Of a stretch of DNA of 64,000 nucleotides, positions 7,992 to 43,782 are shown piece after piece. Source of the DNA: a virus; IMG/VR virus record IMGVR_UViG_3300021373_003070. The stretch is one strand, 5' to 3'. Under the pieces are notes generated by a model. The model did not search any database, was not told the origin of the DNA, and saw only the letters and a program-made list of their open reading frames with translations. The stretch's first letter is position 1. Each line of letters opens with the position of its first letter. The translations under genes and the position numbers were made by a program.

Positions 7992-8405
7992 ATGAGTAAC
8001 GATTGGGCATCAGACATTCGATCTATGCATGACAAATATGGTGTACACGAATGGGTACAGGAAAATCCAGAAAAGCTACGTGAGTTCCTACAGTTCCGAA
8101 TGAAGTTTATACAAGAGGAATTTAGCGAGACGCTCGAAGCAATCATCAATAATGATCCTGAAGAAATGGTCGACGGTCTTATTGATCTATGTGTTGTAGC
8201 TATCGGCACAATGGATGCATTTGGTATCGATGCTCATAAAGCGTGGAACGAGGTCTTCGCTGCCAACATGGCGAAAGAACGTGGTGTAAAAGAAACACGT
8301 CCTAATCCTCTCGGTCTACCAGATCTGATCAAGCCAGAAGGATGGCAAACACCATCACATGCCGGCAATCACGGCCTACTGGCTGAGATGTCACGATCGG
8401 AATAA
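7992..8405 (+). CDS. MazG-like all-alpha NTP pyrophosphohydrolase (possible dCTPase)
   Basis: EEFSE ... EMVDGLID acidic metal motif, ANMAK, DLIKPEGW. Confidence 0.8.
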   Translation: MSNDWASDIRSMHDKYGVHEWVQENPEKLREFLQFRMKFIQEEFSETLEAIINNDPEEMVDGLIDLCVVAIGTMDAFGIDAHKAWNEVFAANMAKERGVKETRPNPLGLPDLIKPEGWQTPSHAGNHGLLAEMSRSE

Positions 8406-8441
8406 CCGATTAATTTTGTGTTTTTTTGCTGAAAATAAGTG

Positions 8442-8470
8442 TGTACTTTTTCTTGATTATGCTGTAGAAT
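8442..8470 (+). promoter_or_regulatory. Early promoter TGTACT-N17-TAGAAT
   Basis: Motif match, AT-rich upstream tract, downstream TCAAAT leader motif. Confidence 0.7.
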
Positions 8471-8501
8471 AGACTAGTCAAATGGAAAAAGGTACACACT
8501 T

Positions 8502-9128
8502 ATGGCCTATTATTACGGCTCACTCAGAGACTCTCTGATCACAGAATGCCAGAACCAAGGCATGTCTCCATCTCATATCGAAAAGTATGCCAAGTACTAC
8601 ATGGCAAAGCAGAGAGCTGCTCGAGGTGGCGGCCGTTCAAAGACTGGATATCAGGACTCCGATAAGACAAAAGTCTATCGTTCAGAGTGGGCATTTCAGT
8701 CAAAGGTTGACATCCGTCAATTCAAAGATATCGACGAAGCAACACAAAGATTCAAGCAAATCAAGAAGTCAAAGCTGTGGAGTCAGATTGGTAAGCAATG
8801 CTATCTGATGGACAATCGCCGCATGGGTCGTGCTACTGCAGGTCGTGCACACGTTGGTGGTAAGATCGAGCTAGGTACAACAGGCATGGATGAGTATACA
8901 CTTATCCACGAAATGGCACATCAGACACATAACTCAATGCACCACGGTGTACAATTTCGTATCCACTTGTTAAAGTTAGTATCTAGATTTATGGGACGAG
9001 AAGCACATGACATTCTCAAAGCAGAATTCAAAGAACGTAAGCTTAAGCTATCAATGCCTAAGCCACGTTCACCGGCTAGCTGGTTCAAATCATATCAACA
9101 CATGCAAAAAGTAAGAGGTGAAGCATGA
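8502..9128 (+). CDS. SprT-like HExxH zinc metalloprotein
   Basis: TLIHEMAH...HHGVQF. Confidence 0.65.
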   Translation: MAYYYGSLRDSLITECQNQGMSPSHIEKYAKYYMAKQRAARGGGRSKTGYQDSDKTKVYRSEWAFQSKVDIRQFKDIDEATQRFKQIKKSKLWSQIGKQCYLMDNRRMGRATAGRAHVGGKIELGTTGMDEYTLIHEMAHQTHNSMHHGVQFRIHLLKLVSRFMGREAHDILKAEFKERKLKLSMPKPRSPASWFKSYQHMQKVRGEA

Positions 9129-9466
9129 AAGAATCACTTAAAGTTTTACAAGAATGTGCTGAGGTACAAATCAAAAAGTCTAATGACTATCAAAATGATT
9201 ACTCTCGCATTCGTCAAGCAGACTACTATCCTCGTGGTGTAGCTACTATCACAGATCTCATCTATGCTAAAGTTCTTCGTATGCAATCAGTCATCGAAGC
9301 TAGCGAACGTGATCCAGAATATACACCAAACTTCGAATCAATCGAAGATTCTGCTAAAGATCTAATCAACTATGCATCATTCGTTGTTGCATACATGCGT
9401 GGCCAAATGGATGGCCAAGAAACAAACCGTGACTTCCTTAATCGGGTGATTGATGATTCAGAATAA
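9125..9466 (+). CDS. Nucleotide-modification-associated all-alpha NTP-PPase (Nmad1/DUF1599-like)
   Basis: KKSNDY ... K.LR ... ESIEDSAKDLINYA pattern; adjacent to the hydroxymethylase. Confidence 0.7.
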   Translation: MKESLKVLQECAEVQIKKSNDYQNDYSRIRQADYYPRGVATITDLIYAKVLRMQSVIEASERDPEYTPNFESIEDSAKDLINYASFVVAYMRGQMDGQETNRDFLNRVIDDSE

Positions 9467-10130
9467 AGTACATGATATCCGTTCTTATTTCAAAGAAGCT
9501 TTACACAAAGAACAATTCACAATTGACAAGACTGGTCAAAAGACTATCGAATTAATTGGTGCATCGTTTATTGCAGACGAGCCATCTATCTTTGGTAGAC
9601 CGGTTCAAAAGTATATCGATGCCGAGATCAATTGGTATATTTCTCAATCTACTAACATTCACGATATCTATGATGAAGGTAGAGCACCACCTGAAGCTTG
9701 GAAGTATTCGGCAAATGAACACGGTGAGATCAACTCAAACTATGGCCATCTTATTTACAGTGAAAAGTATGGTAATCAATACCATCGTGTAATGCAAGAA
9801 CTTCTCGCTCATCCGGATGGCCGACGTGCAACAATGATTTATAATCGTCCATCTATATGGAATGAATACAACGAGAATGGTAAGTCAGACTTTATTTGTA
9901 CCAATGCTGTAACTTACTATGTACGTAATGGTAAACTCCACTGTGTGGTTCAGATGCGCTCTAACGATGTGGTTTTCGGTTACAAGAATGACTATGCTTG
10001 GCAGAAATATATACTAGATATGTTGGCTTATGATATTTCTAGTCATCACACACAAATATTTTCTGGTGATATTATGTGGCAGGTTCAAAACCTTCACGTA
10101 TACGAACGACACTTTAAATTGGTGGAATAA
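9450..10130 (+). CDS. gp42: dCMP hydroxymethylase (thymidylate synthase fold, T4 gp42-like)
   Basis: NSNYG, DFICT catalytic Cys, MRSNDVVFGYKNDYAWQ with Asp at the dCMP-specificity position, LHVYERHF. Confidence 0.9.
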   Translation: MMIQNKVHDIRSYFKEALHKEQFTIDKTGQKTIELIGASFIADEPSIFGRPVQKYIDAEINWYISQSTNIHDIYDEGRAPPEAWKYSANEHGEINSNYGHLIYSEKYGNQYHRVMQELLAHPDGRRATMIYNRPSIWNEYNENGKSDFICTNAVTYYVRNGKLHCVVQMRSNDVVFGYKNDYAWQKYILDMLAYDISSHHTQIFSGDIMWQVQNLHVYERHFKLVE

Positions 10131-10631
10131 ATGTGGATAATGTCCTCTCTTAGAATGATGTTTGTAGGTGCGCTGGCTTCGGCTGGTGTGCTTGCATATT
10201 TTTATTATGTTAATACTCAAGCTGAGTTAGAGTTACTACGCACTGAGATTGAACTATACGAAGTAAAGTTTGCCACACAAACTGAAACTATTGATGAGCT
10301 AAGAGATGAAATACAAGCTCAAACTGAAAGGCTAAATACTTTAGCCATGGCAAATCAAGAAGCTGAAGTCGAGTTGAACAGATATCTTGATATTTTTAGA
10401 CGACACAATTTGCAAAGGTTAGCGGCAGCTAAACCGGACTGGGTGTCGAATATTGTTAATAATGGAACGAAAGATGTATTTGACAGCATTGAAGAAGTTA
10501 GTCGTGTTATCGACTCTATTGATGGTGACGGGGTGCAGTTGGCTCCATCCGAAGACGGAGATACAGATACAGACGAAACAGGTGAGAGTGCCAATAGCAC
10601 AGCCGACACTTCCACGGGAACTGGATCTTAA
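10131..10631 (+). CDS. Probable inner-membrane spanin (Rz-like)
   Basis: N-terminal TM helix, long coiled coil, overlaps a lipoprotein gene. Confidence 0.65.
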   Translation: MWIMSSLRMMFVGALASAGVLAYFYYVNTQAELELLRTEIELYEVKFATQTETIDELRDEIQAQTERLNTLAMANQEAEVELNRYLDIFRRHNLQRLAAAKPDWVSNIVNNGTKDVFDSIEEVSRVIDSIDGDGVQLAPSEDGDTDTDETGESANSTADTSTGTGS

Positions 10632-10854
10632 AGAACCAAAGTTCTACGTAGTATCGGATAAAAATCTCGACGATTTTCTCGTAGAAATTGAGAAGCGTGC
10701 TGGTGGAATTGTATTCGTCGCCATCACTGTTGATGACTACGAACTGATGTCATATAACATGCAAGAGATTAAGCGCTATGTACAACAGATGAAATCTGTA
10801 GTAGTATATTACTATGATATCGTCGAAGACAACAATGCGAAGGCTGAAAAGTGA
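10474..10854 (+). CDS. Probable outer-membrane lipoprotein spanin (Rz1-like)
   Basis: Signal peptide with lipobox MVTGC; Pro-rich; starts inside the previous gene in another frame. Confidence 0.7.
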   Translation: MYLTALKKLVVLSTLLMVTGCSWLHPKTEIQIQTKQVRVPIAQPTLPRELDLKEPKFYVVSDKNLDDFLVEIEKRAGGIVFVAITVDDYELMSYNMQEIKRYVQQMKSVVVYYYDIVEDNNAKAEK

Positions 10855-11486
10855 GAGTTGCGTATTACGTCAATGGTAGTATACGTAAGGTAAATCAAAA
10901 CAATTTGCCATACGATCCTATTGATGTGCATACAGATTTTGCCAATAAGATTGGTGCAGATCTCGGAATGTCAACATGGGAAGTAAGTAGTGATCCAAAA
11001 TCAATATCGCTTCAAGAGCTCATGGAATTGCCATTTGAGAGAAGTAAACAGCCGCCGGGTTATTATCCGGATTTGTTCTGGCAACATGTAAATTATTGTG
11101 AATGGGCGGCATGCAATTATGAAGTATATGACGTATTAGTCAGAGGTCGTTGGGATAATATTTACAATGAAGATAACATCGACCTGATCAGTGAAAGCAT
11201 TACGGCGTGTTATACTGATAGAATGGCGTTTGGATTTTGCAACAGTCGATATCGAGCATTAGATGAATCACTCAAAAATATCAATGATCATGTGATTATT
11301 CATCCAGCTAAATCGTTTGATCCGGATTTTACCTCAAATTTCTTTCGTACATTCACCGGCGTATGGGAAGAAATGGGACCAGTAAGACAAAGTCAGCATG
11401 CTGCATGTAAAGCTGAACATATATGGTGGTGGCTACTATGTGGTCGAACAAATTTACCTTACAAGAATATTAGATTATCTGAATGA
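10851..11486 (+). CDS. Putative GT-A-like protein, paralog family member 1
   Basis: RVAYYVNGSIR ... YDVLVRGRWD; paralogous to 39729, 42474, 60768. Confidence 0.55.
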   Translation: MRVAYYVNGSIRKVNQNNLPYDPIDVHTDFANKIGADLGMSTWEVSSDPKSISLQELMELPFERSKQPPGYYPDLFWQHVNYCEWAACNYEVYDVLVRGRWDNIYNEDNIDLISESITACYTDRMAFGFCNSRYRALDESLKNINDHVIIHPAKSFDPDFTSNFFRTFTGVWEEMGPVRQSQHAACKAEHIWWWLLCGRTNLPYKNIRLSE

Positions 11487-12652
11487 TTGAAACTACAAAA
11501 TATTATGATGAATTCATAAGGTACTTCAACTTAGCCTATAAACAGCAAGAGCTATGTAATGTATCTGATAAAGAACCTTATGGCATGGTCGCACATAAGG
11601 ATTCGAATCTCGGTGATGATCTCATGGAGAATGTTGAATTATATGATGTAGTCGAACGCAAATATGCAGGCTTTTCTCAGATCATAAATGATTGTTTTTA
11701 TGGATGGACAGAAGATCATCCATATTGGAAAAAGATGCAGGCGGGCTTGTGTACCCGTCAACGAGAGACCGTCGCCAAAGACTGGACCGGTAAACAAGAC
11801 GTATTCTCTCTTCCTGAATGGCTCTATGTTTTTATCCTTCATAGAGTCACCGGTTCAGCAATTAACTATGCCCAGAAACCATCTGGGTATTTTAACACCA
11901 TCCTCTTCAATCTCCATCAGTGTGATACAATAGAAGAGATGGTGCAGCTGGCGAAGCACTACCCGGTACCCTTCTATACCTCAGTCGGTTACCAGTTCCC
12001 AGCGTTTCCAAAACCAGTCGGCGACTATAAGAAAGGCGGTGATTATTACCTCGGTGAATTTGCCCCTCGATTAGCTCGCGATCTCGCGGACCATTTGACG
12101 ATGGGTCCTCGCAAGGACCTTCGCGAGATTGGTGAGTTTATGCTGAAGTGGAATGAAGACAATGGTCTTCGACGCTATCAGTTTCAATACGCAGCTGTAG
12201 TCGCTGACGTCGCCGACTGGTTTCCTCAATACGTTAACCGTGAAAGCATGTTCTATTACGGTACAAATGCAGTAGAATGTATCTCTTACTTGGCTAAACC
12301 TGTCAAGAAGATGAAAAAAGAGTTGTTCCTTGATGCCGTCATGACGAAAATATATGATGATACAGGAAGTGTACCATATAATGCTGAAGATGTATGTTGC
12401 GACTTCATTCGTTATGTTGAAAATTATGTTCGCCCTGGTCCGGAATATAATCATTTAGATTATGATAATCTGTGGTCGTCATGCGGCATCAAGGATCACC
12501 CTTATGGAAGACAGAAATATATGTTGGATATGGGGTTGATAGAAACTTTTAATGGCATGAAAAATCATCCATCTGATGATGCAATTCTAAAAAATAATGA
12601 AATGACTGTTGAAGAGTACCAACGTAATGTCGCTAACTTACTTTCTAGGTGA
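11483..12652 (+). CDS. Amino acid:DNA transferase / aGPT-pyrophosphorylase-like protein A
   Basis: DDLMENVELYDVVER, FQYAAVVADV...YGTNAVECISYL, NAEDVCCDFIRY resemble aGPT-Pplase motifs; context of gp42 and a PLP enzyme. Confidence 0.6.
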   Translation: MIETTKYYDEFIRYFNLAYKQQELCNVSDKEPYGMVAHKDSNLGDDLMENVELYDVVERKYAGFSQIINDCFYGWTEDHPYWKKMQAGLCTRQRETVAKDWTGKQDVFSLPEWLYVFILHRVTGSAINYAQKPSGYFNTILFNLHQCDTIEEMVQLAKHYPVPFYTSVGYQFPAFPKPVGDYKKGGDYYLGEFAPRLARDLADHLTMGPRKDLREIGEFMLKWNEDNGLRRYQFQYAAVVADVADWFPQYVNRESMFYYGTNAVECISYLAKPVKKMKKELFLDAVMTKIYDDTGSVPYNAEDVCCDFIRYVENYVRPGPEYNHLDYDNLWSSCGIKDHPYGRQKYMLDMGLIETFNGMKNHPSDDAILKNNEMTVEEYQRNVANLLSR

Positions 12653-13619
12653 ACACGAAAATGATATCCAATATCAGAACATTGCTGAGGTGGATTACAA
12701 AAACGGCAAACCTACGTCGTCGTGGTTAAAAGGTTGGTGTCAAGAAGCTCGAACTGAAAAGTTTTTCGAGTTCTGTCGTGGCTACGATGCACGTCAAGAC
12801 TTTTTACTAAAGAACAACTATCAACAATTCTCACATCGATTGCACTGGCACGAATGTCCTTTTGTTGACGAGATGGCACAAGAGAAAGACAGAGTCAAGG
12901 TACTCGAAGCATGCGTTCTCTTCTCATTTAGCAACGAGCATTGGCAAACATTCAGAGCATGGCGTGATCATGGTCAAGACGGTATGAGAGTAAGATTTAC
13001 AAGCTATCGTCATGCTCGTAGCGATCTGTTTCAGATCTACTATCCAAAAGATACGAAGGTCAAAGACTGGCTCATCGAAGCGCCAGCTCGTATTGCACTT
13101 GAGCTCGATTCATTATTCGATGGCATGCGTAGACCGTTCACGATGATGGAATTTGCCAAAAAAATGAACATCATCATGGTCCGCGATTTTGGTTTTCGTA
13201 ATGCCATGTACCCGTCAAAGAATGCAGCGCGACATGTAGCGATGAGCCATCCTGAGTGGGTTGATCCTGACTCGTTCTTACATGGTGGTACAGGATACTT
13301 CGATGGTTTGTCGCAGATCTTTGACTGTCCACATCTTATGTCAAGATCAAAGTATGAGATTGATGAGGATGGTGAATACGTACCGATGAATAAATGGGCA
13401 GAGATGCAGATCCAACACATGGACTATCTCAAAAATCATCCTAGCAATCCTATTCATACACATCAGTATCTCAACTTAGAAGACAAGCTATGTATGCATT
13501 ACAAGTTTATGTCAATGAAGCTAGGTTCTAAAAAGCAAACAAAGATGATACCATATAACTGGGTGTATCCAGAGAATTGGTCTCTTAAAACAAATAGGTA
13601 TGATCGTGGCACACAATAA
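12627..13619 (+). CDS. Amino acid:DNA transferase / aGPT-pyrophosphorylase-like protein B (paralog of A)
   Basis: DFLLKNNYQQFSHR, HPEWVDPDSFLHGGTG, NLEDKLCMHYKF parallel protein A; ATG 12627 gives N-terminal MSLTYFL. Confidence 0.55.
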   Translation: MSLTYFLGEHENDIQYQNIAEVDYKNGKPTSSWLKGWCQEARTEKFFEFCRGYDARQDFLLKNNYQQFSHRLHWHECPFVDEMAQEKDRVKVLEACVLFSFSNEHWQTFRAWRDHGQDGMRVRFTSYRHARSDLFQIYYPKDTKVKDWLIEAPARIALELDSLFDGMRRPFTMMEFAKKMNIIMVRDFGFRNAMYPSKNAARHVAMSHPEWVDPDSFLHGGTGYFDGLSQIFDCPHLMSRSKYEIDEDGEYVPMNKWAEMQIQHMDYLKNHPSNPIHTHQYLNLEDKLCMHYKFMSMKLGSKKQTKMIPYNWVYPENWSLKTNRYDRGTQ

Positions 13620-14490
13620 TCATGTAATCGATGGCGTCAACAAAGACGTAGGAGTTTTTGGCTATGAAGCAGCAAAAGAATACTACTTATCTCTCACTGA
13701 AGGATGGGAACCATTCAATCCAGATCCCGTTGTCCGTGAACATGAAGGAGTACGGGTCGTTAGAGATGACCTTATCATGGGGACAAAATCGCGAGCTGGC
13801 GATCTCCTTGCCTTCAAAGCCCCTGCCGAAACGTTGGTATACTGTCAGCCAAGGACTGGACTCGCTGGGGTATCGTTATTAGATGTAGCTAAACATCACA
13901 ATCGTAAGGTTGTCTTGTTTATGCCATCATCAAAGAGAGTATCACATCATCAGGCATGTTGTATAGAACGTGGAGCAGAAGTGCATTTCCATCGTATTGC
14001 AGCGATGCCAAATCTTAACAAAAAGGCAAAAGAATATGCAGAAAAACATGGATACTTTTTCATCCCTCTTGGTCTTAGACACGAGTACGCTACCGCCGCA
14101 ATTGTACACGCAGCTAGTAAAATACCTGAGCCAGATGAAGTGTACGTTGCTACTTCGACTGGAGTTCTCAATCGCGCTCTTCAAATTGCATGGCCAAATG
14201 CTCGTATCAATGGTATTGCCGTCGCTCGTAACATGAAGGCCGGCGAGCTAGGTCGATCTACCATTACATCAGAACCTTTGCCATTCATAAAAGCAGAGAA
14301 GAAAGAAAATCTACCACCGTTCCCGTCCATCGACACATATGATGGTAAGGTGTGGAAATACATTCCAAAAAATAGTGGTAAAAATATACTTTTTTGGAAT
14401 GTAGGTACTGAACCTAGTTTACAAGATGATACAATCTATGATAGAATAGATTCATATCGCGATTGGGAGAAAAATAATGCATCAGCGTAG
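13600..14490 (+). CDS. PLP-dependent enzyme, fold type II
   Basis: VVRDDLIMGTKSR (PLP Lys), ATSTG phosphate loop, YDGKVW, LFWNVG. Confidence 0.8.
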   Translation: MIVAHNNHVIDGVNKDVGVFGYEAAKEYYLSLTEGWEPFNPDPVVREHEGVRVVRDDLIMGTKSRAGDLLAFKAPAETLVYCQPRTGLAGVSLLDVAKHHNRKVVLFMPSSKRVSHHQACCIERGAEVHFHRIAAMPNLNKKAKEYAEKHGYFFIPLGLRHEYATAAIVHAASKIPEPDEVYVATSTGVLNRALQIAWPNARINGIAVARNMKAGELGRSTITSEPLPFIKAEKKENLPPFPSIDTYDGKVWKYIPKNSGKNILFWNVGTEPSLQDDTIYDRIDSYRDWEKNNASA

Positions 14491-15580
14491 TGGATTAGTA
14501 GCAACACCTTTTATTACAATCTCACGCCAATTAAGTAGCCATAGAGCTGCGCAAGGTGTTATATATGCCGATCAATTACAAGAAGCTAACGTTGGCCAGA
14601 TTAAAGTCAACATGACAGGGGACCAATACGAAAGTGAATTCAGTAATTATGATGACCTGTATGTATATCATGGCAATGATTGGAGTGGCAATATTAATCT
14701 TTTTGGCGGTCTCAATAATTTCCCTTATATTGAAAACTTTGTCAATTTCTCTAGATTTACTGGTAAAGTGTATTCCCTTGTTATTGATATGCCTGATTAT
14801 TATGGCCTTATGAAAGAGAAGTTCGACAAGGCTAAAGAAAAAGGCAAAGAATGGAATCCTTTATGGGATGGCATCGATTGGGATAATCTCAAACGAATGT
14901 GTGAAACTGCCGAAACGATTGTGCCTAACGAACTACACAAATTTACAAAAATGTCTGTCGGTGATAGTCATGCAATATGCATGTATCGCCCGGGCTGGAA
15001 CAATCTATCCGTACCATTCAAGACATTACACGGCGCATTGAAAGAAGGACTCGAATCATTTCTCGAAGATAGAACATATACACATCTAGAATTTTACTTT
15101 GGCAACATCGATGTAAGACATCACCTTTGTCGTCAAGATGATCCTGTAGCTGCCACACGACAACTCGTTGCAGAGTATATGAAGCAGGCTCATGCCATTG
15201 CACAGAAGTATAATTGCAAAATTCGTATCTACGAACTCCTGCCAATCGAAGCAGAAACACGATCTATTCCAAAAACTGGTTGGTATAAAGGTACGCCGTT
15301 CTATGGCTCTCGTCAAGAGAGAAATGATATTCGCAAGTTGTTCAAAGAAGAAGTAAGAAAGAGATGCACAGACGAGGTGCAACTTTACGAGTGGATTGGT
15401 GAGATGGTTAACTCGAGAGGTGAACTCGATTTTGAGTTTATGGAACGACCTCAGTCAGTACATTTATCTCGTCGTTGGTATCCACATTGGCAAGGCTATC
15501 AGTGGAGTCACGCTCCGTATGTTGAATATATACCTACAGCAGAGCGAGAAACAACTACACTTGAGGATTTTTTTAGCTAA
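14477..15580 (+). CDS. SGNH/GDSL-fold protein with C-terminal clamp-binding-like peptide
   Basis: VGDSH (block I), FGNID (block III), SVHL (block V); ends TLEDFFS. Confidence 0.55.
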   Translation: MHQRSGLVATPFITISRQLSSHRAAQGVIYADQLQEANVGQIKVNMTGDQYESEFSNYDDLYVYHGNDWSGNINLFGGLNNFPYIENFVNFSRFTGKVYSLVIDMPDYYGLMKEKFDKAKEKGKEWNPLWDGIDWDNLKRMCETAETIVPNELHKFTKMSVGDSHAICMYRPGWNNLSVPFKTLHGALKEGLESFLEDRTYTHLEFYFGNIDVRHHLCRQDDPVAATRQLVAEYMKQAHAIAQKYNCKIRIYELLPIEAETRSIPKTGWYKGTPFYGSRQERNDIRKLFKEEVRKRCTDEVQLYEWIGEMVNSRGELDFEFMERPQSVHLSRRWYPHWQGYQWSHAPYVEYIPTAERETTTLEDFFS

Positions 15581-16788
15581 TGAAGCATGCGACTATTATT
15601 CCATTAATTGGAGGTGAAGTGCTCGCCTCCGAAAAGGTGTTCGGCCATAAGCCGGATTATATCCTATCATATAATGCGTTTCAAGCAAACGAAGAGCACC
15701 TACTAAATTATTGGAATCATGAGGTACCGTACTACGTACTCGACGAAGGGGATCGCCACCCCCATCCCGTAGACGTAGTGTCCAGTGTATGTCCTTGTGC
15801 TGGCTTGTCATTGTTCAGCACGCGTTATGGAGAGGACAACAAAAACAATCGCTGGATGATTGAAACGGCTAAGTACGTTCTTGGCGAGATCAAGCCTCTT
15901 GTATTTTGGGGAGAGAATGCCCCAACCTTCACCGGTAAAATCGGTGCACCAATTCGAAATCAACTTATCGAAGTTGGTAAAGAACACGGTTATGTTATGT
16001 CAATGTTTAAGACAAAAAGTCTTTTGCACGGCATACCACAAACACGCGAACGTACATTCTACTTCTTCTGGAAAGGAGACAAGGTACCAGTGTTTGACTA
16101 CTATCGTAGAGACATGACATCAATCGAAGATCTTATACTGAGTGTCGATCGTGATCCTAAGGATCCGATGTCTGAAGTCATTAATAGAACCAAACCAACA
16201 GACAATCCTTTCTACAAATATTTACTTGAGGAGATTCACGGTGGAATATCTCATCGCGATCATTTTGATTCCATTGATGTGCGGGACCCTTCAACTCCTA
16301 ATTATCTTGATGTATATAGCCTCATTGAAAGCCATAAACACGACTACGTCCGTGTTGGAAAATGGCTGGAAAATAAAGGCTATGACCGCGAATCGAAGCG
16401 AGCTTATCGAATGTATGATAAGTTGGAGTCAGGTGGTAATATTATGCGCCGCGGCACTATTCTGCCTAAAGGTCATATCGGATCATTTGTAGGTCACTAT
16501 CCTCAGATGCTAACACATCCACATGAAGATCGATACATTACATTTCGAGAAGCAATGACAATCATGGGTCTGCCTGAAGATTATCAGCTTCTCAATCCTC
16601 GTGGTAGCTTCAATCATATATGTCAGAATGTACCTTATCAGACAGCTGTAGATATGGCTACCGAAGTAAAGGCAGCAATCGAAGGTCAACGACCATGGGT
16701 TGATGCTAACGTTTCTTTGCAGCAAAACACATCTAAAAAGTTTGAAATTTTAGACAAAGAAGAATCTACACTTGAATCATTTTTCTAG
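15580..16788 (+). CDS. DNA cytosine-C5 methyltransferase-fold protein with degenerate SAM motif
   Basis: PCAGLS (IV), ENA (VI), PQTRER (VIII), RYITFREA...GLPEDY (IX); motif I reads IPLIGG; ends TLESFF. Confidence 0.8.
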   Translation: MKHATIIPLIGGEVLASEKVFGHKPDYILSYNAFQANEEHLLNYWNHEVPYYVLDEGDRHPHPVDVVSSVCPCAGLSLFSTRYGEDNKNNRWMIETAKYVLGEIKPLVFWGENAPTFTGKIGAPIRNQLIEVGKEHGYVMSMFKTKSLLHGIPQTRERTFYFFWKGDKVPVFDYYRRDMTSIEDLILSVDRDPKDPMSEVINRTKPTDNPFYKYLLEEIHGGISHRDHFDSIDVRDPSTPNYLDVYSLIESHKHDYVRVGKWLENKGYDRESKRAYRMYDKLESGGNIMRRGTILPKGHIGSFVGHYPQMLTHPHEDRYITFREAMTIMGLPEDYQLLNPRGSFNHICQNVPYQTAVDMATEVKAAIEGQRPWVDANVSLQQNTSKKFEILDKEESTLESFF

Positions 16789-16817
16789 TGTACATTCTTG
16801 TCCACATGCTGTACAAT
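16789..16817 (+). promoter_or_regulatory. Promoter TGTACA-N17-TACAAT
   Basis: Motif match upstream of the GT-gp45 unit. Confidence 0.55.
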
Positions 16818-16846
16818 TTATAAATCTTATCGAATATAGGTAAACT

Positions 16847-17824
16847 ATGGAAATCAATGTACCAGTCGAAGAACTTCGCCAATATAAGGTGATGATTGGC
16901 ACACCAATGTACGGGGCTCAATGCTCAGGTATGTACACGCGATCGATGGCAGAGTTAACAACTACGATGCAGCGATATGGTGTTCCGATGCAATTTTATT
17001 TCTTGTTCAATGAATCTCTTATTACTCGAGCACGTAACTATTGTGTTGATGAGTTTATGCGATCTGATTGCACGCATCTTATGTTCATCGATTCTGACAT
17101 CTCATTTAAAGCACAAGATGTACTATCGATGCTAGCTATTATGCATCAACGACAAGAAATGGATGTGTGTTGTGCACCATATCCGAAGAAGACAATTGCA
17201 TGGGAAAAAATTACTCAGGCTGTCAAGAGTGGTGTCGCTGACGAAGATCCAAATGTCCTCGAAAATTTTGTTGGTGATTATGTCTTCAATCCAATCAGAC
17301 CCAAAGAAAAGGGTGAACACTTTATCAAGTTATCAGAACCAACCGAAGTAGCAGAAGGTGGTACTGGTTTTATGATGATCAAGCGAGAAACGTTTGACAA
17401 GTATAAAGAAACATATCCACAATTTATGTATCGACCAGATCATGTTCGAACTGCACATTTTGATGGTTCAACAGAAATCATGGCATATTTCGATGCATTG
17501 ATTGATGATAAATCACAGAATCTAATACCTGAAATAAAAGCATTCTTTAAGAAGAATCCGAATGCTAAGAACAATGATGTCGTCAGGTTCCTTGAAGATA
17601 AGACAAAGGGTATCGATCAGAAGCAATACTCGAATCGATACCTGTCAGAAGATTACATGTTTTGTTATAATGTAAGACGTGCAGGAATGAAAGTATTCAT
17701 GTGTCCTTGGATGGAATTGAAACATATGGGTGCATACGTATTCGGTGGTTCTCTTGCAGCTCTCGCATCAGTTGGTGCAGCGGCTACAGCGGATCCTGAA
17801 AAACTTGGAAAGAAAAAAGGATAA
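16847..17824 (+). CDS. GT-A fold glycosyltransferase
   Basis: GTPMYG, ESLITRARN, FIDSD (DxD), GTGFMMIKR, YLSEDY.FC. Confidence 0.85.
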   Translation: MEINVPVEELRQYKVMIGTPMYGAQCSGMYTRSMAELTTTMQRYGVPMQFYFLFNESLITRARNYCVDEFMRSDCTHLMFIDSDISFKAQDVLSMLAIMHQRQEMDVCCAPYPKKTIAWEKITQAVKSGVADEDPNVLENFVGDYVFNPIRPKEKGEHFIKLSEPTEVAEGGTGFMMIKRETFDKYKETYPQFMYRPDHVRTAHFDGSTEIMAYFDALIDDKSQNLIPEIKAFFKKNPNAKNNDVVRFLEDKTKGIDQKQYSNRYLSEDYMFCYNVRRAGMKVFMCPWMELKHMGAYVFGGSLAALASVGAAATADPEKLGKKKG

Positions 17825-17832
17825 ATTATATT

Positions 17833-18486
17833 ATGAAACTCAACCAACGCTCGGTACAAATTCTCAAGAATTTTTCTACCATTAATCCGTCAATTCAGTT
17901 TCGAGAAGGTAATGCTCTCAAGACTATTTCGCCAAACAAAACCATTATGGCGAAAGCAGTTCTCGAAGATCAGATTCCACAAGACTTTGCAATCTATGAC
18001 TTGTCGCGATTCTTAGGAGTGTCATCTTTGTTCGAAGATCCTGATTATGTACTCGCTGATCGCAATGTTGTGATTGCGGCACCGGGACGACAGGTAAGTT
18101 ATACTTTCGCTGATCCTAATACGATCGTGTCAGCTCCAAACAAAGACATTGATATTGGTGATGTCGATGTGCAGTTCGAACTGAAGCAAGAAGTATTTGC
18201 CGAAGTAATGAAAGCACTCGGTGTGATGAGCTTTCCTGAAGTTGTAGTTGCAGGCGAAAATGGTCGAATTGTTTTACGCGCAACTGATACGAAGAATCCA
18301 TCAGCAGATAAATATGACATTGAAGTTGGTGAAACAGATCTTGAATTCACCTCTGTCTTCAAATCCGAGAATCTCAAAATCTTATCTGGCAACTATGTTG
18401 TTGGTATCTCATCGAAAGGTATCTCACACTTCCGCGGTGATGATGTAGAATATTGGATCTCGATCGAATCGAACTCTGCTTTTTAA
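17833..18486 (+). CDS. gp45: DNA polymerase sliding clamp gp45
   Basis: ILKNFSTINPSI, FAIYDLSRFL, YWISIE. Confidence 0.95.
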   Translation: MKLNQRSVQILKNFSTINPSIQFREGNALKTISPNKTIMAKAVLEDQIPQDFAIYDLSRFLGVSSLFEDPDYVLADRNVVIAAPGRQVSYTFADPNTIVSAPNKDIDIGDVDVQFELKQEVFAEVMKALGVMSFPEVVVAGENGRIVLRATDTKNPSADKYDIEVGETDLEFTSVFKSENLKILSGNYVVGISSKGISHFRGDDVEYWISIESNSAF

Positions 18487-21244: not shown

Positions 21245-22183
21245 ATGAATGATGATTTTTTATGGGTAGAAAAGTATCGGCCACGTACTGTCGCTGATAC
21301 TATTCTACCAGTCCAACTTCAACAAACGTTTCAACAGTTCGTTGATGATGGTAATGTACCAAATCTTATCCTCACCGGTACTGCCGGTGTGGGTAAGACT
21401 ACTATCGCAAAAGCCATGCTCGAGCAACTCGATTGCGATTACATCGTTATCAACGGTTCGATGAATGGCAATATCGATACACTTCGCAACGATATCATGT
21501 CGTTCGCATCATCGGTATCTCTTCAAGGTGGTCGTAAGTATGTGATCCTCGACGAGGCAGATTACCTTAATCCAAACTCAACTCAACCAGCTCTTCGTAA
21601 TTTCATGGAAGAGTTCTCCAAAAACTGTGGCTTCATCCTCACATGTAATTTCAAGAATAAGATCATCGATCCACTACATTCTAGATGTAGCGTTGTTGAG
21701 TTTAAGCTTGACAAAGAACAACGTATGGAATGTGCAGCACAGATGTTCAAGCGTACATGCACTATCCTTGATAGCGAGAACGTTGATTATGACAAAGCAG
21801 TTGTTGTTGAAGTAGTCAAGAAACACTTCCCTGACAATCGTCGTATTCTCAACGAGCTACAACGATATTCTGCAACTGGTCGTGTCGATACAGGCATTCT
21901 TACCAATTTGCAAGAAGTGACTCTCGACAATCTACTCAAATCTCTCAAAGAAAAAGACTATACCTCGGTTCGTAAGTGGGTAGCAGACAACAGCGATGCT
22001 GATAATACTGTCATCTTTCGTCGACTGTATGACAAATGTTCAGACTTCATGGAAAGCGGTTCGATACCTCAGCTCGTTCTTATTCTCGCTGACTATCAAT
22101 ACAAGGCTGCATTCGTTGCTGACCATGAAATAAATATGACTGCATGTCTCACTGAAATTATGGCGAATTGCTCATTTAAATGA
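21245..22183 (+). CDS. gp44: Clamp loader large subunit gp44
   Basis: LWVEKYRP, GTAGVGKT, ILDEAD, PLHSRC. Confidence 0.97.
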   Translation: MNDDFLWVEKYRPRTVADTILPVQLQQTFQQFVDDGNVPNLILTGTAGVGKTTIAKAMLEQLDCDYIVINGSMNGNIDTLRNDIMSFASSVSLQGGRKYVILDEADYLNPNSTQPALRNFMEEFSKNCGFILTCNFKNKIIDPLHSRCSVVEFKLDKEQRMECAAQMFKRTCTILDSENVDYDKAVVVEVVKKHFPDNRRILNELQRYSATGRVDTGILTNLQEVTLDNLLKSLKEKDYTSVRKWVADNSDADNTVIFRRLYDKCSDFMESGSIPQLVLILADYQYKAAFVADHEINMTACLTEIMANCSFK

Positions 22184-22701
22184 TTGTTGTTCCTAAGTTC
22201 CTCACTCTCGATACCTGTCTCAATATCACTCGTGAATTGGATGACAGGCTATTGAAAGAAGGAATGTGGAAAATTAACAAGAACAACTGGGCAGATCATC
22301 TTACTCGAGGCTTTGACGGAGCTGTATATCTTGCAGATTTCAGAGACCACATGGCACAAGATGACAAAAAGATTTGTTGGAAAATACAGAATAGTGGTTA
22401 CTTCGATCGTAGGATCAATTGGCAAAAGACAAGATTGGTCATGCAAGTATGGGACACTGGCTCAGGTTGTAACTGGCACGCCGACAATCATGTTGACTTT
22501 GCCTGTACCATTTATCTCAACGATAGATGGCAAGAGGAATGGGGTGGTCTGTTAAAATATAGACCGAAAGACGAAGACAAGTATGTCATACCAGATACAG
22601 GTACAATGGTCATCAACACTGATCAAACCTACCATATGGTCACTGAACAGAAGGCTCCATTCTATCGATACACTTTGCAATGTTTTGGAACATACGAATG
22701 A
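22180..22701 (+). CDS. 2OG-Fe(II) oxygenase (prolyl-4-hydroxylase-like)
   Basis: WHAD, IYLN..W..EWGG.L, HMV, R.TLQ.F. Confidence 0.85.
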   Translation: MIVVPKFLTLDTCLNITRELDDRLLKEGMWKINKNNWADHLTRGFDGAVYLADFRDHMAQDDKKICWKIQNSGYFDRRINWQKTRLVMQVWDTGSGCNWHADNHVDFACTIYLNDRWQEEWGGLLKYRPKDEDKYVIPDTGTMVINTDQTYHMVTEQKAPFYRYTLQCFGTYE

Positions 22702-27771: not shown

Positions 27772-28071
27772 ATGACACCAAAAAGTAAAGGCGATCCAAT
27801 GCAACGAGCATTAGGACGATTCAAACCAGATCGAAACTGGTATCCAGACGACTTCGATTGGTATCTCAAATGGGTTGCCTCGATTCTCGTTCTTATATCT
27901 CTAGCCATGCGTTCAGCTGGCATCGATTATCGTATGTACGATCTTGGCTTTGGTTTAGCTGGCATTGTTCTATGGACATGGGTATCTGTCATATGGAGAG
28001 ATCGAGCTCTTATCATGTTGAATTCAATCTCGGGCTTTATGTTAGCAGTTACTATTCTTAGGGAAATGTAA
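27772..28071 (+). CDS. Small multi-TM membrane protein
   Basis: DWYLKWVAS...W.DRALIMLN; three hydrophobic segments. Confidence 0.7.
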   Translation: MTPKSKGDPMQRALGRFKPDRNWYPDDFDWYLKWVASILVLISLAMRSAGIDYRMYDLGFGLAGIVLWTWVSVIWRDRALIMLNSISGFMLAVTILREM

Positions 28072-28799
28072 TGGCTCTGATTGCTGAAAATTATACACCT
28101 CTAAAATTATGGGCAACACCGATTGTCGAATACAATATCGAGTTTACTGAAGAAGAAAATCAGTTGATCGAAAAATTCAATGATGATGCTTTCATTGAAA
28201 AGCACAATGCTACGATCGACGGTCCAGAAAAAAACTTTAGATTGGCATGGATGGGTTACAACATATTGAATCGTAATCCTGAGTTTCAATCAATCGCAAA
28301 GACAGTCGTCGAATTATCATTTCACTATCTACGTGATGTCTGGAATCAGAATATACCTGATGACCTCGCTCTTACGATATCAGATTCATGGATTGTAAAG
28401 GTTGGAGGCGACAGCAACTTTAACGAACCAAATTACTTTAGAAATCACAATCATGCTGGTGCATTACTTACTGGCATCATCTATCTTGATGACAGCAGTC
28501 ATGGTACTGTCATTAAAAACCCACAGTATGATTTTCCTTTCTTTCCATTCGTATGGAAACCGCTCGTAGATGATCCATGGCGCAAATCCGAATACATCTC
28601 AGAATCAAAAAGAGGCAAGGTGCTCATCATGCCGGCCAAAACACATCACGAATTATTTCAAACTCCTGATGAATCCGACAGACGATCAACTATCATCTTT
28701 AATATATGGCCAACTGGTGTGATAAGTGCGCAAGCAGGTTCAGAGCTTGATGTTGAAGACTTTGCCAACTGTTATACTCAAGCTGATTTAGCCGACTAG
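28071..28799 (+). CDS. 2OG-Fe(II) oxygenase
   Basis: HNH...TGIIYL, LIMP...HH, R.TIIFN. Confidence 0.8.
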   Translation: MALIAENYTPLKLWATPIVEYNIEFTEEENQLIEKFNDDAFIEKHNATIDGPEKNFRLAWMGYNILNRNPEFQSIAKTVVELSFHYLRDVWNQNIPDDLALTISDSWIVKVGGDSNFNEPNYFRNHNHAGALLTGIIYLDDSSHGTVIKNPQYDFPFFPFVWKPLVDDPWRKSEYISESKRGKVLIMPAKTHHELFQTPDESDRRSTIIFNIWPTGVISAQAGSELDVEDFANCYTQADLAD

Positions 28800-32865: not shown

Positions 32866-33413
32866 TTGAAACTCCAGTTTTTCCAACGATGTTTTATGAG
32901 ATGAATATTGATCCGAATCTTGCGATCGATATCATTGCATACATTAAAGAACAAGAACCAAGAATAAGATCGATATCAGAGGCATCACAGCCTCATCCTA
33001 TTACTGACTATGCAACAGATTTTGCTCATCCCATACACATACCATTATTTCATGAGCATGTCATTCCAGCTGTAGAGGCATCAGCTAGCTCAATTGGATA
33101 CAAATTTCAGTTAGAAAATTATTGGGTGTCATGCTATACTGGACCAGCTGGTTCACATCCTATGCATAATCACCAAGAGAAATACAATGGTAGAATCATG
33201 ATGTCAGCCATTCTATATTTGTCTGATATTGGTTTTACTGATTTCTTTAACATGAGCTATTCAGCTGACCAATATATGTATAGCGTACCATCGAAGATGG
33301 GTAAGATTGTATTCTTTCCTTCTATCGTACCTCATCAATACAGAGCAGAACAATACGACGGTAATAGCCGTTACACATTACCATTCAACGGAAGCTTTAT
33401 ACGTGCAGACTAG
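32862..33413 (+). CDS. 2OG-Fe(II) oxygenase
   Basis: HNH, SAILYL, VFFPS.VPH, R.TLPFN. Confidence 0.8.
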   Translation: MIETPVFPTMFYEMNIDPNLAIDIIAYIKEQEPRIRSISEASQPHPITDYATDFAHPIHIPLFHEHVIPAVEASASSIGYKFQLENYWVSCYTGPAGSHPMHNHQEKYNGRIMMSAILYLSDIGFTDFFNMSYSADQYMYSVPSKMGKIVFFPSIVPHQYRAEQYDGNSRYTLPFNGSFIRAD

Positions 33414-36032: not shown

Positions 36033-38585
36033 ATGACTAAATTTTATACTAATATCGATCAGCACGGTTCGCAGATACTCGTACGTGGCTATAATGAAGA
36101 TGGCACACCTTTTCAACATAAAGAGAGATACGAACCTTATTTGTTTATGCGATCTCAGGTTGAGACCGGTTACACAGATATTTATGGTAATCATGTCAAA
36201 CGCATGGACTTTCCTAACATCGGCGAAGCCAAGCAGTTTCGCAAGAAATACGAAGACGTTGAAGGTGTAGACATCTACGGTCTTGAACGATATAAGTGTG
36301 TCTATATTTATGACAACTTTCGAAATCAAGTACCTGATACATCACGTATCAACATTGTCAACATAGATATCGAGGTTGCATCCGATGATGGTTTTCCAGA
36401 ACCTGAAGATGCCGACAAAGAAGTAACAGCCATTGGCTTACGAGATCGTACTAAAACAGTTGTGCTTGGTTGTGGTGAATTTAAACATGACGATCCTAAT
36501 ACCTACTACGTAAAGTGTAAGAACGAGATTGAGCTACTCGATAAGTTCTTGAACATATGGCAGCATATGAATCCTGACGTAGTCACAGGTTGGAACACAG
36601 AATTCTTTGATATTCCATATCTTGTCCATCGCATTGCAAAGTGTGGTGCACTTGGCGAAGAAGCACTTAAAAGATTTTCTCCATGGAATCTGCCACTACG
36701 TAAAGGTAGTGTGTTTCGGCCTGGCAGCGACAAAGCTTCAACGACATATCGCATCATCGGTGTAGCAAGTCTTGATTATCTGTCAATCTACAAAAAGTTT
36801 AGATTGCAACCGCGTGAATCATACAAGCTCGATTTCATTGCCGAGACAGAACTTGGTACCAAAAAGATTGACTATAGCGAGTATGGCAATCTACACGAGT
36901 TGTACAAAAACAACTATCAAAAGTTTATCGAATACAACATTCGAGATATTGATCTGATCTTTGATCTCGAAGAAAAGCTAGGTTTCATCGAACAAGTATT
37001 TACTGTCGCATATGATGCTGGCGTCAACTATGAAGACACGCTCGGTTCGGTAGGCATATGGGATGTGATTATTCACAACTATCTCATGGACCAAAACATT
37101 GCGGTGTCAGACAAAGTCAACGCCATATCAGATAGACAGATCGAAGGTGGTTACGTCAAAGAACCAATCGTTGGCATGCACAAGTGGGTGATGTCATTTG
37201 ACCTCAACTCGCTGTATCCTCACTTAATTCAACAATACAACATATCACCTGATACAGGTCTCAATAAGTTTGACGACCTCTTTCATATTACTTCGCGTGC
37301 ATCAGTCGACAATATCTTATCAGAAGAAATTGACTTTAGCGAATTAAAATCTTACAACGTAACCATGACACCGAATGGCAAGATCTATCGACGTGATCGT
37401 CAAGGCTTCTTACCTGCATTGATGAAGAAGATGTATGATGATCGTGTATTGTACAAGAAGAAGATGTTGGAATGCAAACAAGAAGCAATCAAGAATCCAA
37501 GCCGACAACTTGAGATTGACATCTCTCGCTATCACAACTTACAACACGCCAAAAAGATTCAGCTAAACTCAGCTTATGGTGCACTTGCCAACAAATACTT
37601 CAGATGGTTCGATAACGAGAATGCCGAGGCTATCACCATGGCTGGTCAGTTGTCTATTCGTTGGATCGAAAAGAAGATCAACATATGGTTGAATGACATA
37701 CTCAAAACCAAAGGTCGTGACTACGTCATAGCGATCGATACCGATTCAGTATATGTGTCATTCGATAAGATGATCGAACTTACCAATCCAAAGAATCCTG
37801 TTGAATTTCTTGACAAGGTGGCACAGCAACAAGTCGAACCATTCATCGATAAGTCTTATCGTGAGCTAGCCGATTATCTCAATGCATATGATCAGAAGAT
37901 GATTATGAAACGAGAAAACATCGCTGATAAGGCAATCTGGACTGCCAAGAAGCGATACATCATGAACGTATGGGACTCTGAAGGTGTACGATACGAAAAG
38001 CCAGATCTCAAGATGATGGGTATCGAGGCCATTCGATCAAGTACACCAGCGGTATGTCGTGATTACATTAAGAATACGTTGCAGCTTATCATGTCAACCA
38101 GTGAAGCTGATGTGCAAAAATATATTGCTCACATTCGCGAAGAGTTCCGCACATTACCATTCGAAAAAGTTGCATTCCCTCGATCATGTAACTTCGTAAA
38201 GTGGCAAACAAACTCACATACAGGTCAGCGATATCCATCTACATATGCTGATGATAAGACAATCTACAAGAAAGCAACACCTATTCAAGTCAAAGGTGCT
38301 CTACTATACAACTGGTACTTACATAAATATAACTTGACAAAGAAGTATGAACTCATAAAATCAGGCGAGAAAATTAAGTTTTGTTATCTACGAAAACCAA
38401 ACTCATTTCGAGATTCGGTTGTTTCGTGTCCTGATATTTTGCCATCGGAGTTTGGCTTGGAACAGTATATCGATTACGATACACAATTCGTAAAAGGTTA
38501 TCTCGATCCAATTGAAATCATACTACATGCAATCGGTTGGAAGTCTGAAAAGATTTCTACATTGGAGGACTTTTTCAGTGACTAA
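36033..38585 (+). CDS. gp43: Family B DNA polymerase gp43
   Basis: DIEV exo I, FDLNSLYP, KIQLNSAYG, DTDS; ends TLEDFFSD. Confidence 0.98.
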   Translation: MTKFYTNIDQHGSQILVRGYNEDGTPFQHKERYEPYLFMRSQVETGYTDIYGNHVKRMDFPNIGEAKQFRKKYEDVEGVDIYGLERYKCVYIYDNFRNQVPDTSRINIVNIDIEVASDDGFPEPEDADKEVTAIGLRDRTKTVVLGCGEFKHDDPNTYYVKCKNEIELLDKFLNIWQHMNPDVVTGWNTEFFDIPYLVHRIAKCGALGEEALKRFSPWNLPLRKGSVFRPGSDKASTTYRIIGVASLDYLSIYKKFRLQPRESYKLDFIAETELGTKKIDYSEYGNLHELYKNNYQKFIEYNIRDIDLIFDLEEKLGFIEQVFTVAYDAGVNYEDTLGSVGIWDVIIHNYLMDQNIAVSDKVNAISDRQIEGGYVKEPIVGMHKWVMSFDLNSLYPHLIQQYNISPDTGLNKFDDLFHITSRASVDNILSEEIDFSELKSYNVTMTPNGKIYRRDRQGFLPALMKKMYDDRVLYKKKMLECKQEAIKNPSRQLEIDISRYHNLQHAKKIQLNSAYGALANKYFRWFDNENAEAITMAGQLSIRWIEKKINIWLNDILKTKGRDYVIAIDTDSVYVSFDKMIELTNPKNPVEFLDKVAQQQVEPFIDKSYRELADYLNAYDQKMIMKRENIADKAIWTAKKRYIMNVWDSEGVRYEKPDLKMMGIEAIRSSTPAVCRDYIKNTLQLIMSTSEADVQKYIAHIREEFRTLPFEKVAFPRSCNFVKWQTNSHTGQRYPSTYADDKTIYKKATPIQVKGALLYNWYLHKYNLTKKYELIKSGEKIKFCYLRKPNSFRDSVVSCPDILPSEFGLEQYIDYDTQFVKGYLDPIEIILHAIGWKSEKISTLEDFFSD

Positions 38586-43776: not shown

Positions 43777-43782
43777 ATGCAG

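Follow-up and report, generated by a model that had tools for sequence, protein, structure and literature searches.

Introduction

In vitro, C5-cytosine methyltransferases (C5-MTases) carry out reactions on cytosine and on 5-hydroxymethylcytosine (5hmC or hmC) in the absence of S-adenosyl-L-methionine (SAM), and for M.HhaI and M.SssI these side reactions comprise the addition of aldehydes to cytosine and the coupling of thiols to 5hmC (PMC7176277). So far they have counted as curiosities of the laboratory and have served as tools for mapping 5hmC, and no natural enzyme dedicated to them was described in the literature searched. Here we describe a gene with a C5-MTase fold, hereafter the MTase-like gene, located in a stretch of 64,000 nucleotides from IMG/VR virus record IMGVR_UViG_3300021373_003070 (the window, meaning the whole stretch analysed), which derives from an uncultured T4-like marine myovirus. 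Its product keeps the catalytic motifs of the fold and carries others at the places of the SAM-binding ones, and we favour, with modest confidence, a catalytically competent enzyme that rides the phage sliding clamp and performs some form of non-SAM chemistry.

Several phage systems provide the frame for this comparison. CmoX of Synechococcus phage S-B43 (PDB 8yf3) is a DNA cytosine C5-carboxymethyltransferase dependent on carboxy-SAM (Cx-SAM), which keeps the SAM contacts F25, E47 and D69 and in which the residue at the position of M.HhaI Asn304, Arg350, selects the transferred group (PMC12783734). The phage C5-MTases coupled to TET/5mYOX dioxygenases are GpC-specific SAM enzymes that place 5-methylcytosine (5mC) after replication for the dioxygenase (Burke et al. 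2021, PMC8256090). The alpha-glucosyltransferase of T4 binds the gp45 clamp (PMC13216743), and synthases of the RB69 type, which lead to 5-hydroxycytosine, have also been described (PMC13326640). No description of the present family was found in the full-text literature, including the work on TET-coupled C5-MTases, CmoX, MetaGPA and viral glycosyltransferases, and the source databases label its members merely as 'site-specific DNA-cytosine methylase'.

Catalytic core and replaced cofactor motifs

The match of the MTase-like protein to PF00145 (E 1.2e-15) starts at residue 63, equivalent to profile position 61, and the alignments obtained with phmmer against PDB sequences and with hhalign against a phage C5-MTase and Escherichia coli Dcm likewise begin at residues 59-66; the first 60 residues gave no alignment to canonical enzymes by any of the three routes (Pfam, phmmer, hhalign). 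The Pro-Cys of motif IV, the Glu of motif VI and the QxRxR of motif VIII are all present, whereas the FxGxG of motif I and the GN(A/S)V of motif X are not. At the latter, the gap-free profile alignment to M.HaeIII and M.HhaI places C348 on the Gly, Q349 on the Asn (N304 of M.HhaI) and N350 on the Ala/Ser. The fold match and a direct reading of the motifs thus bear out the first-pass annotation of this DNA, made from the sequence alone, which had described a C5-MTase fold with intact PC, EN and QxRxR motifs, and the sequence of the open reading frame (ORF) indeed reads IPLIGG and CQNV where motifs I and X had been placed.

The same annotation had regarded the SAM motif as broken, a view that did not survive comparison with the family. 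More than 2,300 homologues (E <=0.001) were found in a 90%-identity cluster database, where 120 of the 120 homologues among the matches listed aligned over their full length, and a 50%-identity cluster library holds at least 239 family clusters at E <1e-30. Residue conservation was counted in 83 representatives (28-58% identical) and motifs were surveyed in 240 full-length homologues. Invariant in the representatives are P8, G11, P72, C73, E112, R156 and R158, accompanied at the catalytic motifs by N113 (82/83) and Q154 (81/83). The replaced motifs are kept to a similar degree: L9 in 81/83 and G12 in 82/83 at motif I, with Ile or Val at the position of the Phe; Q349 in 82/83 and N350 in 79/83 at motif X, with V351 within the set of residues kept in 93-99%. 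In the region of motif II, Ser or Thr at residue 30, an aromatic residue at 31, F34 and an acid (Asp or Glu) at 38 are each found in 99% of the representatives and N37 in 93%, while residue 32 (N32) is variable and residue 55 is Asp in 73%. The wider survey gave the same picture, the motif I loop reading PLIGG in 208 of the 240, PLVGG in 17 and PGIGG in one, and motif IV containing its Cys in all of them (CPCAGLS in 190, PPCAGLS in 19). As a whole, the N-terminal 60 residues are conserved as strongly as the catalytic core. This near-invariance of (I/V)PL(I/V)GG, of the aromatic residue 31 and of QNV in more than 240 homologues, some only 30% identical, goes well past what chance would give and points to a different motif under strong selection and not to a broken one, and decay of a pseudogene was rejected on the same grounds.

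Matches in the ESM Atlas were confined to clusters named 'DNA (cytosine-5-)-methyltransferase family protein', all of them viral. Long fused members of the family also exist, with 598-1462 residues (P0212, P0215, P0196 and P0178); P0212 bears a C-terminal zf-CXXC domain (E 6.6e-07) and the other long forms have no extra Pfam domain. Scans with the family members P0187 and P0215 returned no matches.

Structural model and the cofactor site

The AlphaFold2 model of the MTase-like protein (pLDDT 88, pTM 0.86) shows the two-domain C5-MTase fold, as judged with both VIA-align and Foldseek. It superposes on M.HaeIII (1dct) with a Z score of 25.3 and on M.HhaI with 23.9, over 279-298 residues and with root-mean-square deviations of 3.2-3.5, the range in the case of M.HhaI being residues 1..370 of the model on residues 12..325 of the enzyme. 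DNMT1, 3g7u and CmoX (8yf3, Z 22.7) superpose as well, and Foldseek matches to C5-MTase structures reach E values of 1e-11 to 3e-13. The N-terminal 60 residues, which sequence methods fail to align, are predicted confidently as strand β1 (residues 3-6), a loop, helix A (12-21), β2 (28-30), helix B (32-44) and β3 (51-53), after which the catalytic half begins.

On a gap-free register with M.HhaI, residue I7 would stand where that enzyme has its adenine-stacking Phe18, P8 at Ala19, L9 at Gly20 and G11-G12 at Gly22-Gly23. The end of β2, where the ribose-binding Glu40 is located in M.HhaI, is occupied by S30-Y31, aromatic in 99% of the representatives, and the conserved acid at residue 38 lies two helical turns past the expected motif II acid, both assignments being made by secondary-structure register only. 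With Leu for the Gly of FxGxG, Ile or Val for the Phe, an aromatic or variable residue at the site of the Glu and Gln at the N304 position, which faces the group being transferred, the enzyme would not be expected to accept methyl from SAM bound in the canonical way.

Linkage to the thymidylate synthase homologue

Gene order was compared in 80 IMG/VR loci whose homologues of the MTase-like protein are 51-87% identical. The common arrangement runs gp46 ... MazG-like, DUF1599, gp42, a variable cassette, the MTase-like gene, a GT-A glycosyltransferase, gp45 and gp44. Among all loci with 7 kb or more of upstream sequence, 53 of 54 have a homologue of thymidylate synthase (TS) beside the MTase-like gene, and the sole exception belongs to a clade whose TS gene falls downstream, beyond the available sequence. 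At the specificity position, the TS motifs beside the MTase-like gene read Asp in 95/95 and Asn in 0/95. In the window, the TS homologue is of the gp42 type of deoxycytidine monophosphate (dCMP) hydroxymethylase, 52% identical to T2 gp42 and with the equivalents of Glu60, Cys148 and Asp179 kept, and on this evidence the earlier proposal of a probable hmC genome held up. An RB69-type 5-hydroxycytosine genome is unlikely given that identity to T2 gp42; a second class of coliphage matches to the TS homologue, about 22-24% identical, is not identifiable as RB69-type 5-hydroxycytosine synthases.

The linkage was seen in five phage groups, namely that of the window, a second T4-like group (L103-L127), XG4, L088/L092 and S-TIM5. 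In the second T4-like group the order is gp42, a deaminase-like gene, two small ORFs, a 277-residue ORF, the MTase-like gene, an epimerase and a dehydrogenase. A distant clade (30% identity; contigs of 323 kb and 85 kb) has its family member 1-5 kb from the TS homologue and from GDP-mannose-dehydratase/epimerase genes. Two cultured phages are included. In Pseudoalteromonas phage XG4 a gp42-like gene lies 5 kb upstream of the family member. In cyanophage S-TIM5 (NC_019516) the family member (gp080), which reads IIPLVGG, PPCAGLS and ICQNVP, is placed 2.4 kb from an annotated thymidylate synthase (L001:6766-7602, minus strand) that reads RSNDMATGVPLD, with Asp replacing the Asn by which ThyA specifies dUMP. 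This enzyme is probably a dCMP-modifying one, as judged from its sequence. TIM5-like phages encode a 'DNA alpha-GT' (PMC10087341), and S-TIM5 DNA may contain a modified cytosine, since its TS-type gene has the Asp and phages of its kind carry this glucosyltransferase gene. Throughout the sampled loci, as far as the TS linkage tells, the family is found only where the phage makes a 5-substituted dCMP beforehand. All-against-all BLAST of the adjacent ORFs in the sampled groups revealed no shared partner other than the TS homologue.

A closer inspection of the segment between gp42 and the MTase-like gene (window positions 10131-14490) identified it as a swap site with constant flanking genes. The cassette of the window, of the amino-acid type, consists of two transferase-like ORFs and a fold-II pyridoxal-phosphate (PLP) enzyme and occurs in about 14 of the 80 loci. 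Other loci contain GT-B-like, UDP-galactopyranose-mutase-like and epimerase genes together, or an inositol-phosphate-synthase-like gene with HAD genes, or other sets, with dCMP-deaminase-like and UDP-glucose dehydrogenase-like genes also represented (in the relatives, genes were assigned by visual reading of N-terminal sequences). Most relatives have glycosyltransferases and sugar-nucleotide enzymes as neighbours. The MTase-like gene, with the same pocket residues, is present in all 80 loci. The two transferase-like ORFs of the window (11483-13619) had no Pfam match (E up to 0.01-0.1), and the second of them (12609-13619) had no PHROG match.

A scan of 185,579 species genomes yielded 16 family matches, all on contigs of metagenome-assembled genomes (MAGs) with T4-like gene order and none in an isolate genome. 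These are mis-binned phage contigs and hold no host information; their MAG labels (L132-L147) include Bacteroidetes, Rhodobacteraceae, Planctomycetes, Verrucomicrobiales, Melainabacteria and others. None of the 16 loci has a restriction-modification context, and a restriction-modification methylase of cellular origin was rejected, all matches in the cellular collection being phage contigs. Among 50,697 phage records the window has no close DNA relative.

A clamp-type C-terminal tail

The C-terminal peptide of T4-type DNA polymerases docks on gp45. The MTase-like protein ends in an (S/T)LxxFF-type peptide like that of its cognate polymerase, and ends of the form TLE(S/D)FF are found in only three of the 100 plus-strand ORFs of at least 80 residues in the window (the polymerase, the adjoining ORF 14477-15580 and the MTase-like gene) and in none of its 34 minus-strand ORFs. 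Among close homologues, 93 of 120 have a clamp-type tail, compared with 8% of background ORFs. In 120 distant representatives the tail has a different form, 27 of them ending in xLF against 1.5% of background ORFs; examples such as KNKLLF, SKVLF and KAKELF (P0121-P0269) resemble C-terminal motifs of the beta-clamp type. The ORF of 277-281 residues that precedes the MTase-like gene in related loci ends in SLETFFG or VEDFFA, and in the L103-L127 group the 277-residue ORF ends in SLETFFG and the MTase-like protein in SLEAFL. This distribution suggests that clamp tethering is a trait of the family fitted to the clamp in use, and the MTase-like protein of the window probably rides gp45 on nascent DNA.

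Proposed function and alternatives

In the reading we favour, the MTase-like gene would be a constant core part of a pre-replicative hmC pathway. Held on the gp45 clamp, the enzyme would act on phage DNA just after its replication, with Cys73 adding to C6 of a flipped cytosine-type base and Glu112 protonating N3, and what the activated C5 then receives would not be the methyl of a SAM bound in the canonical way. Since the pocket stays constant while the neighbouring cassettes change, a generic ligand or reaction is to be expected and is the more economical assumption. Among the non-SAM options that would be generic in this sense, a one-carbon unit might be placed on leftover cytosines from a donor such as methylene-tetrahydrofolate, or the 5-CH2OH group of hmC might be worked upon by covalent catalysis through an exocyclic methylene intermediate. 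Methylation by SAM held in a novel pose would be generic as well. Our modest confidence applies to non-SAM chemistry by a competent clamp-riding enzyme in all its forms taken together. Each form by itself is unlikely, covalent-catalysis derivatisation of the 5-CH2OH of hmC a shade less so than hydroxymethylation, at the DNA level, of cytosines that escaped replacement; some other non-SAM reaction is improbable. We tentatively propose, as something a little short of an even chance, that the family is the first natural branch of the C5-MTase fold to have abandoned SAM methyl transfer, installing a hydroxymethyl-type unit or exchanging the hydroxyl of 5hmC.

Several points weigh against such a function. 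To our knowledge, PF00145 enzymes in which motifs IV, VI and VIII are intact nearly always depend on SAM or one of its analogues, and we know of no precedent for folate binding in the C5-MTase fold. T-even phages make hmC DNA without an enzyme of this kind, and a cofactor-free enzyme would tend to strip hydroxymethyl groups. At the cofactor site itself, the two glycines of the motif I loop are kept, the exchange of Asn for Gln at 349 is conservative, D55 may correspond to Asp60 of M.HhaI, the adenine-binding Asp of motif III, and the P-L-x-G-G loop resembles the DPFxGSG loop of SAM-binding amino-methyltransferases. The mapping of residues over motifs I-III is, in addition, one of gap-free register and secondary structure and not of residue-level superposition.

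The alternative that survives best is a SAM-dependent C5-methyltransferase with a diverged SAM site, which would ride the clamp and make 5mC on escaped cytosines or on host DNA. We place it on the unlikely side, as a serious contender nonetheless. The complete fold with its catalytic motifs, the base rate of the family and the features of the site just mentioned (the Gly-Gly loop, the possible motif III residue D55 and the Gln/Asn pair in motif X) speak for it, and the window does encode other SAM methyltransferases (34094-34810 and 43777-44436). It is opposed by the Leu at the first Gly of FxGxG and the Ile/Val at the stacking Phe, by the lack of a conserved acid at the aromatic end of β2 and by the failure of motifs I-III to align with canonical enzymes. 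It also leaves unexplained the linkage to a dCMP hydroxymethylase, in whose product C5 is already occupied, and no restriction-modification context accompanies the matches in species genomes. An ordinary sequence-specific 5mC methylase, for its part, explains none of the associations, whether the selection, the hmC linkage or the clamp tail. Should SAM methylation prove correct after all, the phage would have a clamp-tethered, DNMT1-like 'maintenance' enzyme with an unusual SAM site.

The first-pass annotation had proposed a more specific form of non-SAM chemistry, a kinase-independent activator that couples a nucleophile to 5hmC. Spelled out, the Cys-C6 adduct would form on 5hmC, the hydroxyl would be expelled and a thiol, an amine or an amino acid would join the exocyclic methylene. 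The SAM-free reactions of C5-MTases on 5hmC that it invoked are real, the precedents in vitro being M.SssI and M.HhaI (PMC7176277). hmC is the expected base here, the gene shares one operon with modification genes (with a one-nucleotide overlap with the upstream ORF), and kinase-independence agrees with the absence of a Walker-A kinase motif from every ORF of the island 7992-17824. What did not stand is the link to a particular cassette. A coupler of cassette-specific nucleophiles is unlikely because the pocket is invariant beside cassettes that change, of the amino-acid type in about 14 of the 80 loci and of sugar types in the rest, and because the adjoining glycosyltransferases need an intact 5-CH2OH. 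A coupler dedicated to the amino-acid/PLP genes is weakened in particular, the MTase-like gene being present in all the loci. As a sub-case of non-SAM chemistry, the activator is accordingly rated unlikely, at about the level of hmC derivatisation as such.

A non-catalytic role is still less probable, and we consider it doubtful in the extreme that the protein serves merely as an accessory which flips bases or reads hmC, either handing hmC to the transferases or marking the DNA of the phage. It adjoins transferases and is translationally coupled with them, and the clamp tail is common to both; however, invariance of Cys73, Glu112 and Arg156/158 is what catalysis predicts, and the partner transferases are unrelated to one another. 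SAM-starved C5-MTases deaminate cytosine, and a SAM-less attack on unmodified cytosines of the host (C-to-U deamination or covalent trapping), from which hmC would protect the phage's own DNA, is very improbable, since both the phage-clamp tail and an operon shared with DNA-decorating enzymes suggest the phage's DNA as the target and the island 7992-17824 has no uracil-processing gene.

Neighbouring genes

The features of the region are collected in Table 1. Elsewhere, the window encodes the gp23 capsid protein, UvsW, gp46/47, the gp44 clamp loader, the gp43 polymerase, UvsX and a DnaB-type helicase in addition to the gp45 clamp. The stop codon of ORF 14477-15580 overlaps the ATG of the MTase-like gene by one base (TAATG). 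Downstream, the product of phrog_1574 models as a GT-A glycosyltransferase and is a constant neighbour of gp45 in this phage group: it is present in 69 of 83 loci, has an invariant D82-S-D84, and its Foldseek matches are STIV A197, COLGALT1, EXTL2, GalNAc-transferases and TarP. This reading fits the GT-A DNA glycosyltransferases reported from metaviromes beside ThyS homologues, methyltransferases and clamps (bioRxiv 10.1101/2023.12.21.572611). A dCTPase role is likely for the MazG-like protein.

Further modification genes lie outside the island. There are two 2-oxoglutarate (2OG)-Fe(II) oxygenases of the Oxy_3 and Oxy_5 types (22180-22701 and 28071-28799), a GT25 glycosyltransferase followed by a Methyltransf_24 protein (33307-34810), a fusion of HAD phosphatase and nucleotidyltransferase (NTP-transferase) for sugar-nucleotide synthesis (41110-42477) and an FkbM methyltransferase (43777-44436).

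Table 1. Coordinates of the MTase-like gene, its motifs and its neighbours within the window.
Feature	Position	Strand	Basis or remark
C5-cytosine-methyltransferase-fold gene with rebuilt cofactor site	15580..16788	+	402 residues; ORF, PF00145, AlphaFold2 model
Motif I equivalent IIPLIGGE (residues 6-13), in place of FxGxGG	15595..15618	+	conservation; inferred gap-free register with M.HhaI
S30-Y31-x-x-F34-x-x-N37-E38-x-H40 block, end of β2 and helix B	15667..15699	+	expected site of the ribose-binding Glu of motif II
Motif IV VCPCAGLS (residues 70-77), catalytic Cys73	15787..15810	+	P72 and C73 invariant
Motif VI GENAP (residues 111-115; ENV type), Glu112	15910..15924	+	E112 invariant
Motif VIII PQTRERTF (residues 153-160; QxRxR), R156 and R158	16036..16059	+	both Arg invariant
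Motif X equivalent ICQNVP (residues 347-352), in place of GN(A/S)VP	16618..16635	+	HMMER alignments to M.HaeIII and M.HhaI
Clamp-binding-like tail STLESFF of the MTase-like protein	16765..16785	+	census of ORF C-termini
STLEDFFSD end of gp43 DNA polymerase (ORF 36033-38585)	38556..38582	+	
MazG/PRA-PH-type NTP (nucleoside triphosphate) pyrophosphatase	7992..8405	+	PF01503, 4.5e-11; kept upstream in related loci
DUF1599 'nucleotide modification associated' protein	9125..9466		adjoins the gp42 gene
gp42-type dCMP hydroxymethylase	9450..10130	+	52% identical to T2 gp42; constant genomic partner
ORF phrog_13881, ending in TTLEDFFS	14477..15580	+	in 33/80 related loci
GT-A-fold glycosyltransferase, phrog_1574 ('unknown function')	16847..17824	+	AlphaFold2 pLDDT 75, Foldseek
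gp45 sliding clamp	17833..18486	+	PF09116, 4.9e-15; phrog_223, 1.2e-70

Significance and comparison with known systems

The present analysis adds statistics for the linkage in five phage groups and a count of Asp at the TS specificity position. It further shows that the gene stays constant next to changing cassettes and is absent from cellular genomes, and it assigns the neighbouring ORF to the GT-A glycosyltransferases. If the proposed function is true, nature would draw on SAM-free reactions, or on a new cofactor, to hypermodify DNA. Ocean phages would then widely carry what amounts to a gp42 acting on DNA, or else an activator that needs no kinase, and the hmC pathways of abundant marine phages would gain a constant component that had gone unnoticed. 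The family would also be a possible source of new enzymes for labelling or writing 5hmC. With family members in two cultured phages, S-TIM5 and XG4, the question is directly testable.

With the T4 alpha-glucosyltransferase the MTase-like protein would have in common that a DNA-modifying enzyme binds the phage sliding clamp, whereas fold and chemistry are unrelated and the clamp link of the family is read from the shared C-terminal peptide only. The likeness to the atypical reactions of M.HhaI and M.SssI is in the proposed Cys-C6 adduct, which would activate C5 or the 5-CH2OH group without SAM; those are, however, solely in vitro side reactions of SAM enzymes. With the TET-coupled enzymes it shares the occurrence of a phage C5-MTase gene in a cytosine hypermodification cluster with glycosyltransferases, but the hydroxymethyl group of the window is supplied pre-replicatively by the gp42-type enzyme. 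TET (PF12851) had no match among the window ORFs scanned, both 2OG oxygenases belonging to other Pfam families, and a TET search of a 91%-complete relative (G001) found none either, although control genomes were equally without a match.

With M.HaeIII and M.HhaI the family shares the whole fold, the PC of motif IV, the EN of motif VI, the QxRxR of motif VIII, motif IX and the helix of motif X. It departs from them in (I/V)PL(I/V)GG, in the lack of a conserved acid at the end of β2, in the (C)QNV of motif X, in a largely helical target-recognition region and in the clamp-type tail; it stands beside a dCMP hydroxymethylase (53/54 loci) and, in the loci examined, never beside a restriction enzyme. 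CmoX resembles the family as a phage enzyme of the C5-MTase fold with a changed residue at the N304 position, and profile alignment shows part of the variable region to be common to both. CmoX, however, transfers carboxymethyl instead of methyl and has SPPC, Arg350 and a CmoA partner, compared with VCPC, Gln349 and a TS-homologue partner in the family, and no CmoA-like match was obtained among the window ORFs scanned. Carboxymethyl transfer of this type was rejected, there being neither an Arg at the key position nor the canonical SAM contacts. CmoX keeps its SAM contacts, whereas the present family replaces the contacts themselves and fixes Gln at the N304 position.

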